64,000 nucleotides of DNA from Elusimicrobiota bacterium (lineage in GTDB: Bacteria; Elusimicrobiota; UBA8919): NCBI GenBank assembly GCA_040757695.1, contig JBFLWK010000007.1:1-64000 (forward strand), given 5' to 3'. Made by a program: the position numbers. Every line of letters starts with the position of its first letter. Position 1 is the first letter of the stretch. Of the stretch, positions 15,001-39,000 are shown one piece after another.

Positions 15001-18000
15001 TGAAATAGTAAAACTTCAAGTATGTAATGTTATTGAGAAAGCGAATATGGATAAGATATTAGCGGAAGCGGCATTTCAACAGACAGGCTGCACAACATCG
15101 GAATGCGCAGTCCAGATTGGTAAACTCTTGAATGTAAAACAGATGGTTGTTGGCGACCTTTCTAAACTTATGGATACATATTTTATAACGGTAAATCTTG
15201 TAGAGGTTGAAACCGGCAAGATACTTAAATCAGAAACAGTAAAAGCATATTCGGCAGAAGAACTTCAGCGTGTCTGTGTAGAACTTGCTAAAAAAATTAC
15301 TCAATAGCACATAAATAAGAAAGTATAAAATTAACCACAGATGGACACAGATTAACACAGAAAAAATTTAGAATTAAGAATTAAAATCTGTGCAAATCTG
15401 TGTTAATCTGTGGTTACTCGCCTAGGCGAGTTTTCTGGAACGGGGGAAGAATGGACGAAAAAAAATTGATAAAGTCATCAATGTTACTTGATGAAAAAGA
15501 AAAATATGCAGAACAGGACCTGCAAATAATGGACCGACTTTTTATTGCCTATCGGGCAATCGTTATACTATTGTTTAATTTTGCGCAGTCAGGTCATCCT
15601 GGCGGCTCTATTTCAGTCGGCAGGATTCTCTTGAATCTTATCTTTAATAAAAATACAAAAATGGATATTACAAACTTGAATAGACCTGATTCTGATATTA
15701 TCGGCATGGCAGCAGGACATAAAGCACTCGGGTTGTATTCGTTTCTTGGGCTTTTATTTGAACTTGTAAAACTTAAAGATGAAAAACTTTACAATTCTAT
15801 TGAACATAAATTACGGTTTGAAGATTTGCTCGGATTCCGAAAAAATCCAGCAACTGTGTTGCCATTGCTGAAAAAATTTAGCTCTAAACGGCTTGATGGT
15901 CATCCAACACCTGAAACACCGGGCGTTATGCTCGCAACAGGCGCATCCGGTGTTGGCTTCGGTGGCTTCGGTGGTTATGCATTTGCAAAAAAAGAATACT
16001 ACGAGAATCCGCCAATAATAAATATCGTAGAAGGTGAAGGTGGAATGACACCGGGCAGAGTACACGAAAATCTGGCACATTTCTGGTCGGCTAATATCTG
16101 GAATCTGATTATCCATGTGGATTGGAACAATACCAGTATTGATGCGGATAATGTCTGTACCGACGAGCATAACAAAGGGCAGTATGTTAATTGGACACCT
16201 TACGAACTCGGGCTTCTACACGGGCATAATGTCGTGTATGTGGAAAACGGTAAGGATAATAATCAAATAAAAGTTTCACAGGATTATGCATTTAACAATT
16301 TTATCACTCAAAAAAATGCACCAAATATGCTTGTGTATCGCACTATAAAAGGCGAGGGCTATTGGGAAGGTAGAAAATCACACGGTGCCGGCTATAAACT
16401 GGATTCCGACGACTATTTCAATGCGCAAAAAATTTTTGAGACAACTTTTAATGTCCAATTCAGCAAAACACCGCAGCCGGCAACACCAGAAATAAAAGAA
16501 GAATATTTTTACAAGAATCTGTTGGTTGTTGAAACTGCACTTAGAGCCGACGATAAACTGCTTGAGTTTGGATTTAATAAACTGATTTCAAACAGGAATG
16601 CACTGAATAAAGAAAACCGCAAGCCTAAAAAAGATAGTGCCGCTATTTCCGTTTTGTTTGAAAATTCTGAGTCGCTTGATATAAAAAAACCACCTACAGA
16701 AATTTGGAATAAACCAGGCAGTTCTGTGACATTGCGGGAATCACTCGGTAGAACATTGAGTTATCTTAACCATATCACAAAAGGCAGCTTGTATGGTTTT
16801 GCCGCAGACCTTGTTGGCTCAACAAGTTTGAACCTGATGAGCGATGGTTTCCCTGAGGGGTTTATTTCCTGTGAGAAACCACTTGCCAAAATTATTCCAA
16901 CCGGTATCTGTGAAGACGGCGGTTCTGGTTTGATGTCAGGCATTTCTGCAACCGGGCATTATATCGGCGTAGGCAGTTCATATGCTACATTTATCAGCCC
17001 GATGGGATTCACTGCTGCACGGCTTTTCTGTATCGCATATCAGTCCAAACATGGTGAAAACATAGCACCGGTGATTTTGGTTAATGCACACGCAGGACTA
17101 AAAACAGGCGAAGATGGTCCCACACATGCGTGCCCGCAAACGCTTTCATTCTGGAAAAGTTTTAATAAACTTAAATGGAAAATAATTACACTTACACCTT
17201 GGGATGCAAACGAAATATGGCCGCTTGTCCTTACATCATTAAGACAAAAACCTGCTGTGATTGTCCCATTTGTTTCACGACCAAGTGAAACAGTAATTGA
17301 TAGAAAAAAGTATGGTTTTGCCGATGTATCAGAAACTGTTAATGGAATATACTCTATCCGTCGGGCAAAAAAATCAAAAGCAACTATCCTGTATCAAGGC
17401 GCCGAAGTTGGGATTGAACTGCCTAATGTCGTTGAGATTTTAGACAGAGAAAAAATAGATGTGAATATTTTATATATCTCAAGCACGGAATTGTTTTCAT
17501 ATCTGTCGAAAAAAAAGCAAGATGAGATTTTACCGATAGAATTCAAGCAAAACGCAATGGCAGTAACAGGTTTTACAATAGATACGATGTACGAACATCT
17601 GCTGTCCGAAAAAGGGCGTGAGTTTTCGTTGCATCCATTCAAGAAAGGAATCTTTTTGGGCTCAGGTCCCGGCGGTGAAGTGCTGAAACAAGCAGGTTTG
17701 GATGTCAAGAGTCAGATTCAGGCAATAAAAAAATTTGTTATAGAATTAAAAAAAGAATAAGGACAGTGATTGATTTTTACTTAATCGCTTAATTACATAA
17801 TCACTTAATCACTGATGTTATTATGGATATCAGAGAAATTATTAAAGCGGCAAATGGCGAAATAGTGGTTGACCTGTTGTTAAAAAATGGTAAATTGGTG
17901 AATGTCTTTTCAGGCGAAGTTTATCCTGAAAATGTGGCAATCCATAAAGGTTTTATCGTCGGGTTCGGAAATTACAAGGCAAAAAAAGTACTGAATATCA

Positions 18001-36000: not shown

Positions 36001-39000
36001 TTTCCAGAGACAAAAGAATCAGCCGATGCCCAATACAACATCGGTACTTGCTATTTGAAACTGAAACAATACGAGGAAGCATTAAAAGAATTCCAGGCGG
36101 TAATTGATAAATTTCCTGAACGAAAGAAAGCAGTTGATGCATATTTGCAGATAGGTTCTATCTATCAAAAAAAGCAAGAAAAATATGAAACAGCAATCAA
36201 AACATATCAGGAACTATTAGAAAAATATCCTGACTCAAAAAAAGCGGTCAATGCCCAGTTTGAGTTAGCAGTTTGTTATGAAAAAATAGATAATAGCAAG
36301 AAAGCGATAGAAGAATATCAGAAGGTTATAGATACCTTCCCGGATTCTAAAAAAGCAGAAAAAGCAAAAGAAAAAATCGCCAAATTAAAAGGTCAAAAAA
36401 CAAAAAAACCCAAAAAACAAGAGCCTATAAAAAAAACGAAGAAGCCGATAAAATCAGAAGAACAATTACCACCACAAGATGCTAATGAATAAATATCGCT
36501 AAATGGATATAAAAGAATTGCTTAAGAAAATACCGAAAGTTGACCTGCACTGTCATCTTGATGGCTCTGTAAGGGCTGAAACAATTTTAGAACTTGCCAA
36601 AAAACAGAATATAAAATTGCCAACTCCAAATCCTGACGAACTCAAAAAATATGTTCAGGTTTCCAAAAACTGTCGGTCTCTTGCTGAATTTCTGAAGGTC
36701 TTTAATTTTTTTTATCCGCTATTAAAAAACCCGGAAGCGGTTGAAAAGATTGCCTATCAGTTATGTGAAGATTGTAAAGCAGAAAATATAAAATACTTTG
36801 AAACCAGGTTTGCGCCTGCACTTCAGTCAACAGCAGATTTTCCAATGGACGAGGTTGTAAAAAAAGCATTATTCGGCTTACAGCAGGGTTCAAGAGATTT
36901 CAAGATAAAAGCAAACGCAATACTGTGTTGCTATCGGATGATTACAGACGACGAAAACTGGCAGACGGTTGAACTTGCCAGAAAATATTCAGATAAAGGT
37001 GTTGTCGGAGTTGACCTTGCGGGTGATGAGGTAAATTATCCAACTGAAAAGTTTATCAAATTTCTTAAAAAAGCAAAAAGTTACAAAATACCGCTTACCT
37101 GTCATATTGGTGAAACACCGATGGGGAGTGGGATGAAAAAAATTTTTGATATACCAGTTGACAGAATAGGTCACGGGGTTCATCTTTCTAAAAGCAGCGA
37201 GAAACTTATTGATATAGTTAAAGAAAAAAAAATACCAATTGAAATGTGTATTACATCAAATATCCAGACGCAGGTTGTAGAAAGTTTAGAAGCACATCCA
37301 ATCAAAGAGTTTTACAATCAGGGCTTAAAAGTAACGGTGAATACTGACGATAGGTCGGTAAGCGGGATTGATTTAACACATGAATATGATATATTAGTTA
37401 ATCATCTCGGGTTTGAATTAGATGATTTAGTCAAAATCATATTTAATGGTGTTGATGCAGCATTTCTGCCGGAGCAGGACAAAAAAAATCTGGCACTTTT
37501 AATAAAGAAGGAGATAAACACAATTATTTATGGAACAGCAAAAATTCAAACGGCACAGTGAGACACGGGATTTATTAAGAAAACTGGTTAATACATATGG
37601 GCTTGAAAAATTAGGCAAGATTATAGAAGATGACAATTCAGTTCTTTTTACAAAGGATGTTTATATTTCATTGCATAGTATTGTTGAAACAACACTTGCT
37701 AATGAAGACACACTGAAAGCGATGCGGTTAGCACGAAACATCTATGATATTCCTGTTTTTATAGTAAATTCCCGTCGTGGAATTTTTCGGATAAGAAACA
37801 AACCGAGTTTAGAGAAAGCGATTGAGACACTAAAAAATTTTTCTAACTGTTTCAGATTAAGTCCTTACAGTATTCTGAATACCTTTTTAGCAATTGTAGA
37901 ATCGCAAGTTACCGGTTTTGATTTACAGAAATTATACCAAACCGGTATTCAGCATATAGAATCATTCATTCAACACGCTTCAAAAAACAATCCGAACTGG
38001 GTCAACCAACCGCTTACAAACAAAAAGCCGGTTTTAATAATACCAATCGGTGCGGCTGGCAGTGGCAAGTCCACTTTCTATAAAGAACTGTCAAAAATAG
38101 AAAATGTTATAAATATCTCCTGTGACAATATCAGGTATTTGTTGTTTAAAGAGTTCGGTCCATGTTTTGCACCGTGGGAAAGTTGTCTTTCTTGGTGGCT
38201 CGTAAATCAACTTACAGATAGTTATATTAACAAAGGATACAGTATTTTTTATAATGGTGTCAACACGGATATAGAATACAGAACGCCGATGACAATGGAA
38301 CTCACAGATACGCTGTATGCTGGGATACCTTACAATCTAAAACTCGTTTATTTTGAACCGCCTGTAAAACTAACCGATGAGGAATTGGAAAAACTGAAAG
38401 AAATAGATTTATGGACGCTGCCGATTGACAAAGTAGAACTTCATTCCTTACCGCCAAATGTCGCAAAAATTATACAACTTATCAAAGATAATTTTCAGCG
38501 AACATTTAACAGAACCAAAGAAATTTCAGAAGGCAAAAAAGAACAAAACCCGTTTGATGTTCTCTACTCGGTACCTGCTGCAATTATCAAACTTTTTGTA
38601 GAGCAATCGTTTAATGTTCCTAAAGGCATGAATGTGCTCACAATCCCGCGGAAAGAAATAAAAAACAAGTCAGAACGTAGTTTATTTTATTATAAATACG
38701 CCCAATCGGCTTTAGAATCAGAAACTTGACAAATCTAAAAAATTCTTGTAAAATAAAAATAGGAACATAAAAACAGCGAGCCAGAGAGACAGAATGCCGA
38801 ATGGACAACAGGTTCCGGTGGGGATCTATAACATTGGGATTCCCATACAAAATGTAAGCAAATGCTTACATTTAAAATACCACGTAAATTGCTGCGGGGA
38901 GTTTCATTGAAATTTCGGATTTCAGATTTAGGATTTAGAATTTGCCGTTAATGGAGGTGTTGAATGAAGAGCAAAAGAATAATTTTGATTGCAGTCATTT

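Follow-up and report, generated by a model that had tools for sequence, protein, structure and literature searches.

We analyzed a window of 64,000 nucleotides (positions 1 to 64,000 of contig JBFLWK010000007.1, here C7) from an Elusimicrobiota bacterium (G000, 99% complete), in which the gene for the single-strand exonuclease RecJ lies among genes for nucleoside catabolism and encodes a protein, P0001, with a second nuclease domain. The question raised by this locus is whether the enzyme serves DNA repair, the digestion of imported DNA, or both.

25626..27845, + strand: RecJ with an inserted DEDDh exonuclease (P0001), 739 aa in one open frame
26262..26780, + strand: inserted DEDDh (DnaQ-like) domain, about residues 213-385 (PF00929, E 1.4e-38)

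P0001 has the architecture of a bacterial RecJ, with an N-terminal extension, DHHA1 and a C-terminal OB fold (Pfam domains DHH 78-208, RNase_T 219-372, DHHA1 517-607 and RecJ_OB 625-731), and it scored 528.8 bits against the recJ family TIGR00644 (cut-off 396.9). All of the DHH motif residues are present (D84/D86/D88, D139, D162-H163-H164, D401, H586; metal ligands as named in PMC4846377). The inserted domain contains the ExoI DxE, ExoII D and ExoIII H-x4-D motifs of the DEDDh exonucleases, with intact catalytic residues D222/E224/D307/H359/D364, and has the corresponding fold. In the predicted structure (pLDDT 94, pTM 0.91), P0001 aligned with S. aureus RecJ (8y30; Z 39.5, rmsd 2.1, 555 aligned), and the insert with E. 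coli epsilon (2gui; Z 25.5, rmsd 1.2, 163 aligned) and the DinG exonuclease (9ii8; Z 26.1). The claim of the first-pass annotation that a complete DEDDh exonuclease is fused into RecJ is thus upheld by domains, catalytic residues and fold. The site of insertion needs revision: it had been placed between DHH and DHHA1, but the insert interrupts the DHH catalytic domain itself, between S. aureus RecJ residues 217 and 218, and precedes the motif IV metal ligand D401 (D223 in D. radiodurans). P0001 is the sole full RecJ and, as previously noted, the sole DEDDh domain in this genome, with the only PF00929 match. A scan of genome contigs with this one protein recovered a single locus.

With two complete active sites, and with each fold matching enzymes of known structure, degradation of single-stranded DNA with both polarities is a sound prediction from sequence and model. 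The solved bacterial RecJ structures (S. aureus 8Y30, D. radiodurans 5F54-5F56, T. thermophilus 2ZXO) share the DHH/DHHA1 motifs, the OB fold and the overall fold with P0001, but contain no insert, whereas here a DEDDh domain of ~175 residues is located between motifs III and IV. DnaQ-like exonucleases (PolC exonuclease 2P1J, E. coli epsilon, DinG, ExoX) share the ExoI-III motifs and the fold with the insert (rmsd 1.2-1.5). In PolC, too, a DEDD domain interrupts a nuclease domain of another type (PMC5636811), but here the host is RecJ and there is no epsilon C-terminal tail, while DinG pairs an exonuclease domain with a helicase (PMC12345164). A 3'-5' activity is known from archaeal RecJ-family enzymes, which occur with either polarity (6TVV, titled 3'-5' RecJ exonuclease); archaeal RecJ and ExoVII, however, have one active-site type, in contrast to the two unrelated sites on one chain in P0001. 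The open-access literature searched contained no description of a RecJ in which two unrelated active sites have opposite polarity. That repair exonucleases act on imported DNA is already established, reportedly also in nutritional competence. RecJ degrades imported single-stranded DNA in Vibrio (10.1101/127308), and E. coli is reported to use competence-related genes and nucleases to consume DNA (Palchevskiy and Finkel, 2006, 2009).

We compared P0001 to 84 relatives of at least 700 aa, with the query excluded, among the 119 matches listed. The nine RecJ catalytic positions were invariant in 84/84, while each of the five DEDDh residues was kept in 68-76 and all five in 68; the reported invariance of the RecJ residues and general retention of the DEDDh residues is confirmed with these slightly adjusted counts. 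Given the intact insert in these 68 listed relatives and the single open frame, an assembly or gene-calling artefact was rejected. Of the 57 RecJ-bearing genomes, 30 have an intact insert and 27 a decayed one. It is old, being intact in some Elusimicrobiota and Spirochaetota and having decayed many times, and the fusion accounts for the extra ~140 residues of Treponema-type RecJ, which are the remnant of a dead exonuclease insert. RecJ and its deo neighbors remain after decay of the insert, and the order deoB-punA-pdp-recJ-mtaP is kept where the insert is dead.

A role for the insert in proofreading had been raised as an alternative. All nine PHP proofreading ligands of DnaE are intact and match those of Mtb and Taq (active PHP motif given in PMC12926913), so there is no missing epsilon subunit, which weakens this alternative and led us to reject it as the main role of the insert. 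The insert also has no C-terminal alpha-binding tail, the domain ending near residue 381 and re-entering RecJ; P0001 scored 117.7 bits against TIGR01406 (cut-off 222.7), and no string resembling the clamp motif was found in P0001 with the one pattern used. In a broader version, the insert would be the one general DnaQ-like enzyme of the genome, a second proofreader or an end-trimmer that can be swapped with a stand-alone DEDDh protein. DnaQ is known to work beside an active PHP domain in mycobacteria (PMC11348249), and DEDDh matches were identified in 185 of 201 genomes, mostly one in each. Leaving out two undecided genomes, the fused copy was the sole DEDDh match in 19 of 23 genomes with an intact insert, and a stand-alone copy was present in 15 of 19 with a decayed insert. 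G035, from which the insert has been deleted, has a stand-alone copy. A strict swap, strong in these raw counts, was nevertheless unsupported after correction for the tree (of 4 pairs, 1.0 changed in the same way, 0.3 in the opposite way and 2.7 showed no difference). Moreover, the stand-alone copies had no common link to replication genes, and no substitute was seen in four decayed genomes. We consider the general DnaQ role improbable. Fission of the insert into a stand-alone gene was also rejected, as 56 inserts were split from 19 stand-alone domains in the domain tree, albeit weakly (SH-aLRT 77).

The genes of the window that bear on nucleoside catabolism and DNA uptake are the following.

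1591..3099, + strand: DeoC with an N-terminal extension of ~150 residues, and a BMC-H shell gene
15400..17760, + strand: divergent transketolase-like protein (PF00456, PF02779; below NCBIfam cut-offs)
17823..19529, + strand: adenine deaminase (TIGR01178 over cut-off)
21315..22538, + strand: deoB, phosphopentomutase (TIGR01696 over cut-off)
23087..24767, + strand: PiT phosphate transporter and PhoU-like partner (PF01384, PF01865)
24777..25595, + strand: punA, purine-nucleoside phosphorylase (TIGR01700 over cut-off), 30 nt before recJ
27902..29233, + strand: pdp, pyrimidine-nucleoside phosphorylase (NF004747, TIGR02644 over cut-off), 56 nt after recJ
29559..32567, + strand: first accessory block, with a xylose-isomerase-like TIM barrel, a small P-loop protein and a second DHH/DHHA1 phosphoesterase
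32564..33424, + strand: mtaP, MTA phosphorylase family (TIGR01694 over cut-off)
34096..35821, + strand: second accessory block, with a second TIM barrel and a P-loop kinase-like protein
36503..37561, + strand: adenosine deaminase, add (TIGR01430 over cut-off)
37530..38729, + strand: P-loop kinase-like protein (weak AAA_33 match)
38964..57351, + strand: Tad/type IV pilus genes (cpaB, cpaF, two TadB/C-type genes, a secretin and a PilB-like gene), interspersed with other genes

A 23-kb run of nucleoside catabolism genes had been described here, and ade, deoB, pit, phoU, punA, pdp, mtaP and add agree with that description; the run is not all catabolism, however, as it also contains a DNA methylase with an unknown partner, a PBECR nuclease, an MntA/HepT pair and a TPR protein. 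The PiT/PhoU-like pair would supply phosphate for phosphorolysis. A gap of 325 nt follows pdp, and a scan for promoters and terminators gave no excess over shuffled sequences (57 vs 63 and 14 vs 12.7, respectively). A 22-nt palindrome before recJ was rejected as a specific operator, since it occurs 55 times in the genome and in none of 10 loci of relatives. The deoC and shell genes do lie upstream of recJ, but ~23 kb away, separated from it by genes for PilT, a DnaA-like ATPase, a kinase/regulator pair and an aminotransferase, among others, and the main microcompartment locus is located on contig C16.

The pdp gene adjoins recJ, on either side, in 67 of 73 genomes, and the adjacency was observed in 8 of 26 spirochaete-type loci as compared to 0 of 48 other RecJ loci. 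If P0001 were purely a housekeeping enzyme, a RecFOR or mismatch repair RecJ with a 3'-5' helper, its deo context would reflect inherited gene order or the recycling of its own products, and its co-occurrence with feeding traits would stem from common ancestry. This is consistent with its being the sole RecJ, with the presence of recO within two genes upstream in 12 of the 26 spirochaete-type loci, and with high background synteny (43 of 57 decidable gene pairs kept between G000 and G031/G042). RecJ also stays when deoB-punA-pdp is lost (G044, G070, G104, G108). Two metagenome loci with an intact insert (L098, L100), in which no nucleoside gene adjoins recJ, tell against the dual-use reading given below. 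Against a purely housekeeping role, the pdp adjacency survives a swap in gene order and crosses phyla, and the distribution of the insert among genomes, described below, runs in one direction; on balance we regard this explanation as rather unlikely.

The deoC and BMC-H genes on C7 are a satellite of an SPU-type microcompartment on C16. DeoC, RpiB, shell genes and aldehyde dehydrogenase were all found in G000, split over C7 and C16, with RpiB, the aldehyde dehydrogenase and PTAC on C16 recognized by reading the sequences, without a family scan. The described SPU compartments share DeoC, two RpiB, an aldehyde dehydrogenase, a phosphotransacetylase-like protein, a PduS-like protein and shell genes with this one (PMC8217296; PMC11585597); it has been suggested that they handle products of DNA breakdown, and they are found in Elusimicrobia (PMC11585597). 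The main text of PMC11585597 contains the terms "nuclease", "competen" and "phosphorylase" 0 times each, whereas in the present case the compartment is accompanied by genes for uptake and nucleases. Of the 57 RecJ-bearing genomes, 17 have several shell genes, among them two or three pentamers, and the insert was intact in 17/17. In G106 and G370, the shell locus is on the recJ contig, 15-30 kb upstream. The TIM barrel of the first accessory block was found in 11 of the 57 genomes, all 11 microcompartment-positive, and deoC was absent from 1 of 30 intact as compared to 12 of 27 decayed genomes.

The first-pass annotation counted three ComEC genes, which we could not reproduce: two genes in G000 encode a Competence domain, and the other matches are stand-alone metallo-beta-lactamase (MBL) proteins. 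DNA may enter through ComEC with the 3' end first, which the literature consulted did not confirm and which is not used as evidence here. The second ComEC (C10:41384-44284) has DUF4131, Competence and MBL domains, but its MBL site reads TSLETGH, as compared to STHPDADH in 30BT, so that the metal-binding motif of HxHxDH type is absent; this motif was lost in 119/119 of the listed homologs that cover the site. Further matches to the second ComEC were obtained in Lindowbacteria, Wallbacteria and Hydrogenedentota. In a survey (PMC6299819), all strains but one had a single ComEC-domain protein per proteome. A second or nuclease-dead ComEC tied to nutrition was not described in the open-access literature searched, although supplementary locus tables of the microcompartment and ComEC surveys could bear on this. 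The Bacteroidales ddbABCDEF system, which likewise uses competence-related genes and nucleases to consume DNA, digests it outside the cytoplasm, and ComEC is never named in its description (PMC12478041), whereas the present genomes point to a second ComEC whose MBL site is dead. A second large ComEC was present in 13 of the 57 RecJ-bearing genomes, with the insert intact in 13/13 and the microcompartment in 12/13. The cpaB-cpaF genes lie downstream of the second-ComEC locus in G014, G023 and G029, and the pilus genes of the window may belong to the putative DNA-feeding system.

None of the 27 decayed genomes has a three-pentamer microcompartment or a second ComEC; the locus in G154 is of another kind, with one pentamer. 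Among sister lineages, G010 and G035 (decayed or deleted insert, neither trait) contrast with G023/G026/G029 (intact, both traits), and G070, G104 and G108 (decayed or deleted, no deoC, no pdp) with G106 (intact, microcompartment). Independent pairs, computed on a quick tree, gave none against the link of the insert to the microcompartment or the second ComEC, but only 3-6 pairs on well-supported branches; these are too few for significance to be reached (best median p 0.06, for microcompartment with second ComEC; 0.25-1 for pairs with the insert). This lack of significance, and the 12 of 30 intact-insert genomes with neither trait, fit a housekeeping enzyme as well.

In its strong form, the food hypothesis holds that RecJ is a dedicated nuclease that eats imported DNA and hands the sugar to the microcompartment. 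The one-way co-occurrence is perfect in the 57 genomes, and the spacing to punA and pdp is close. Yet P0001 is the only RecJ, the RecJ core does not vary even where deoC or pdp is missing from the genome, and at least three enzyme steps separate the RecJ product from DeoC. G229 combines the second ComEC, the microcompartment and deoB-punA-pdp with a RecJ that lies elsewhere and lacks the insert, and it gave no DEDDh match with the query used; likewise, 100 of 120 pentamer-bearing genomes, an unsorted range of compartment types, gave no match to RecJ at E<=1e-40. That the enzyme is dedicated to food is accordingly very improbable, while the link to feeding is retained from the original proposal, given the co-occurrence of the insert with the microcompartment and the second ComEC and the recurrence of pdp-recJ in spirochaetes.

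Because the insert is intact wherever the microcompartment or the second ComEC is present among the relatives examined, the enzyme likely serves both repair and feeding. The reading that we prefer, and whose chances we judge to be evenly balanced, is that the sole RecJ with its intact DnaQ-type domain is predicted to digest single-stranded DNA to mononucleotides, working from the 5' end as well as from the 3' end, with a dual use in repair and in the digestion of imported DNA. The RecJ head would be kept throughout the clade because repair needs RecJ, and the 3'-5' head would persist as long as DNA feeding continues and decay once that pressure is gone. G000 also has ExoVII, a two-way single-strand exonuclease, so the fusion may be redundant. 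More tentatively, there might be two uptake lines: an ordinary ComEC with DprA for transformation, and the dead-nuclease ComEC for food, with RecJ breaking the DNA down from both ends and the deo enzymes and the microcompartment turning its sugar into ATP. The second line would then be a full pathway for the consumption of DNA, gained and lost as a unit. The second ComEC, flanked by its own helicase and membrane-anchored nucleases, would then import DNA as food.

It is a long-standing question whether the DNA that bacteria take up serves as a source of genes or as food. If the link to feeding fails, a modest domain insertion in a repair enzyme remains. If it is true, genomes in which two different ComEC channels are present, one of them lost together with the deoxyribose-phosphate microcompartment, would make the two uses of DNA uptake genetically separable, and would also provide the upstream half that the SPU pathway lacks, leading from the DNA polymer to deoxyribose 5-phosphate.

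The RecJ encoded in the window carries an inserted DEDDh exonuclease domain:

Window 25626-27845, plus strand: RecJ of 739 aa (P0001), with a complete RNase_T/DEDDh domain at residues 219-372.

Residues 3-214 and 391-733 of this protein align to residues 7-217 and 218-558 of RecJ from S. aureus, with a segment of about 175 residues spliced in at a single point. The insertion point precedes the motif IV aspartate D401, whose counterpart D223 is a metal ligand of D. radiodurans RecJ (PMC4846377). The insert thus lies inside the DHH catalytic domain; the first-pass annotation was right about a complete DEDDh domain but had placed it between DHH and DHHA1. 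In an AlphaFold2 model built from 95 sequences (pLDDT 94, pTM 0.91), the RecJ part superimposes on 8Y30 over 555 residues (rmsd 2.1, Z 39.5), and residues 215-381 on the epsilon, PolC and DinG exonucleases (rmsd 1.2-1.5, Z 25-26). The fusion is real and its parts are ordinary. It is the only full RecJ in this 99% complete genome and, as first annotated, contains the only RNase_T/DnaQ-family (PF00929) domain.

Named homologs with the insert come from Elusimicrobiota (Endomicrobiia and relatives), Spirochaetes and Brevinematia. Among relatives of at least 700 aa, the RecJ residues are kept in 84 of 84 and all five DEDDh residues in 68 of 84, while inserts are eroded in shorter relatives. RecJ was matched in 111 of 401 genomes, and we profiled 57 of these, picked to cover the families (f4 in part); the insert is intact in 30 and decayed in 27, the intact state switches at least 8 times on their tree, and the insert is cleanly deleted in G035, G098 and G108. 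A metagenome scan yielded 80 RecJ loci, of which 26 encode a segment of 137-145 residues at the insert position that has lost the catalytic residues and that hhalign identifies as a homolog of the insert (probability 94%, E 1e-7, versus 0.3% for the reversed control):

L101, L103-L114, L116-L121, L123, L124, L126, L127, L135, L141 and L144: RecJ of about 710 aa with a conserved, dead DEDDh remnant, Treponema/Spirochaetales type.

Ten clusters of this type were queried and 8 found, 6 of them named Treponema, Spirochaetia or Spirochaetales; in agreement, a 722-aa Spirochaetota RecJ cluster in the Atlas aligns over 703 residues (TM 0.86). Conservation of a catalytically dead remnant suggests a structural role. 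The insertion is thus old and its activity dispensable in many lineages; it probably has a single origin, with weak tree support. No RecJ over the cut-off was found in families f7, f12, f15, f19, f20 and f21 of the phylum scan (a faint match in f7, none in f12, f19, f20 and f21); pdp is present in most of these genomes and shell genes in many.

The insert had also been proposed as the missing Pol III epsilon. Aligned with Mtb DnaE1 and Taq, DnaE of this genome has the full HHDHEH[C/H]DH set, nine residues given as the mark of an active PHP exonuclease (PMC5636811, PMC12926913). No epsilon is therefore required, which speaks against proofreading as the main role. That the insert is a general DnaQ-like enzyme is a minor rival that we consider improbable: the fused copy is the only DEDDh domain in 19 of 23 intact-insert genomes and a stand-alone copy exists in 15 of 19 decayed ones (two undecided genomes omitted), but independent pairs do not support such a swap. 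Stand-alone DEDDh proteins of 270-327 aa at L085, L086, L087 and L090 have a C-terminal extension, which we take to resemble a WYL domain. Contig C1 (106883-108115) encodes a stand-alone DnaE-type PHP domain in a 411-aa frame that lacks the polymerase domain and has apparently intact metal ligands.

The nucleoside-catabolism neighbors of recJ were recovered as first listed, with unrelated genes interspersed. The 40 loci fetched mostly place recJ among deoB, punA, pdp and mtaP, both where the insert is intact and where it is dead. At most 700 bp separate pdp from recJ in 67 of the 73 genomes with both placed (4 of the 6 exceptions resemble contig breaks; 15 further RecJ genomes without a placed pdp lie outside the 73). 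As a synteny control, 20 regions spaced evenly over G031 and G042 were compared with our genome: of the co-oriented neighbor pairs, 57 could be decided and 35 could not, and 43 of the 57 are neighbors in our genome too. Background order is thus well kept, which weakens the adjacency as evidence. Within our genome's taxonomic order the genes run in a swapped order, punA-recJ-pdp, adjacency nonetheless retained, and pdp is directly upstream of recJ in 8 of 26 spirochaete-type loci versus 0 of 48 other RecJ loci (many are short contigs). Together these exceed gene-order inertia. recO occurs at most two genes upstream in 12 of the 26, with the order recO-pdp-recJ in four loci checked with Pfam (L107, L108, L110, L114), tying this RecJ to repair and nucleoside breakdown alike. 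No nucleoside gene adjoins recJ in the intact-insert loci L098 and L100.

Other features of the region are:

Window 6343-8172: ATPase domain of DnaA type lacking the C-terminal DNA-binding Pfam match that usually accompanies it; many relatives keep it next to pilT and a GAF histidine kinase.
Window 12827-13479, 19526-21318, 22535-23060 and 33421-34084: two MntA/HepT pairs, a PBECR nuclease pair and a methylase with a 276-aa partner, all inserted within the nucleoside run or close to it; G074 and G106 have the methylase pair at this spot too.
Window 25589-25610 and 38851-38872: 22-nt near-perfect palindrome, with 55 copies in the genome, some flanking a dapF-like gene on C1, and none in 10 relative recJ loci.
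Window 29559-38729: TIM barrel, P-loop, DHH, mtaP, TIM barrel, P-loop, add and P-loop block, found only in microcompartment-positive genomes and adjoining the first comEC in G005 and G029.

Two further loci concern a second ComEC (ComEC2):

C10:41384-44284 (L219:11385-14285), minus strand: ComEC2 (P0227), 967 aa, dead MBL motif.
C44:8626-12070: UvrD-like helicase and membrane-anchored MBL protein, apart from ComEC2.

ComEC2 retains DUF4131, Competence and MBL domains, and the MBL metal motif is lost in all 119 listed homologs covering the site. Members of this cross-phylum subfamily, some with added SNase or HhH domains, are named from Lindowbacteria, Wallbacteria and Hydrogenedentota. Downstream of ComEC2, relatives encode a PD-(D/E)XK nuclease, in many cases a UvrD helicase, and a membrane-anchored MBL protein whose motif is intact in 9 of 10 sufficiently long loci; cpaB-cpaF come next in G014, G023 and G029. 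In our genome cpaB-cpaF follow the nucleoside run, the last histidine of the C44 MBL motif is replaced, and no match to the small PD-(D/E)XK gene was found. The first ComEC has a near-canonical MBL motif, and the genome also encodes DprA. Of 2,373 proteomes in one survey, all except one contain just one ComEC-domain protein (PMC6299819). On C3 (1654-21066), a 6,471-aa open frame for an apparently secreted protein lies beside a stand-alone MBL gene, a pairing similar to one on G229:C3.

The genome has an SPU-type microcompartment on C16, its DeoC being encoded in the window; compartments of this kind have been described in Elusimicrobia, with the processing of DNA breakdown products as their proposed role (PMC8217296, PMC11585597). 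Among the 57 genomes, 55 have a ComEC-family match, 17 a microcompartment (insert intact in all 17), 13 a ComEC2 of 950-1130 aa (insert intact in 13, compartment in 12) and 11 the TIM-barrel gene (compartment in all 11), and the traits are jointly lost within f1 and f13. Well-supported independent pairs number 3-6 on a quick tree, none contrary and none at p 0.05 (best 0.06). Genome size does not account for the pattern, since genomes with the module frequently measure 1.4-1.8 Mb and several with a decayed insert 2.2-3.4 Mb. Compartments without ComEC2 occur in G005, G106, G111, G370 and five RecJ-less genomes tested. Twelve intact-insert genomes have neither compartment nor ComEC2, 100 of 120 pentamer-bearing genomes lack a RecJ match, and G229 combines ComEC2, shell genes and deoB-punA-pdp with an ordinary RecJ. 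Feeding can therefore do without the fusion, and a dedicated food enzyme is highly improbable. Within the fusion's clade, a decayed insert was never seen where feeding genes persist; a purely housekeeping RecJ is rather unlikely.

The most likely reading, held with middling confidence, is a dual-use enzyme. In repair, RecJ trims back 5' ends (PMC4846377), and it also breaks down single-stranded DNA that has been imported (10.1101/127308). The RecJ head would degrade 5' ends and the added DEDDh head would take 3' ends, so that any linear single strand could be reduced to dNMPs. Dephosphorylation might fall to a protein with a SurE-like motif on C4 or to the second DHH protein, and later steps would follow the known deo and SPU pathways. 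Within the open-access literature, supplements aside, we found no description of a RecJ-DEDDh fusion, or of a second ComEC, or one with a dead nuclease site, in connection with nutrition. Exonucleases in DNA nutrition reportedly have a precedent in Palchevskiy and Finkel (2009), and DNA-utilization loci have one in PMC12478041. The candidate DNA-eating gene set is more novel than the RecJ fusion within it.
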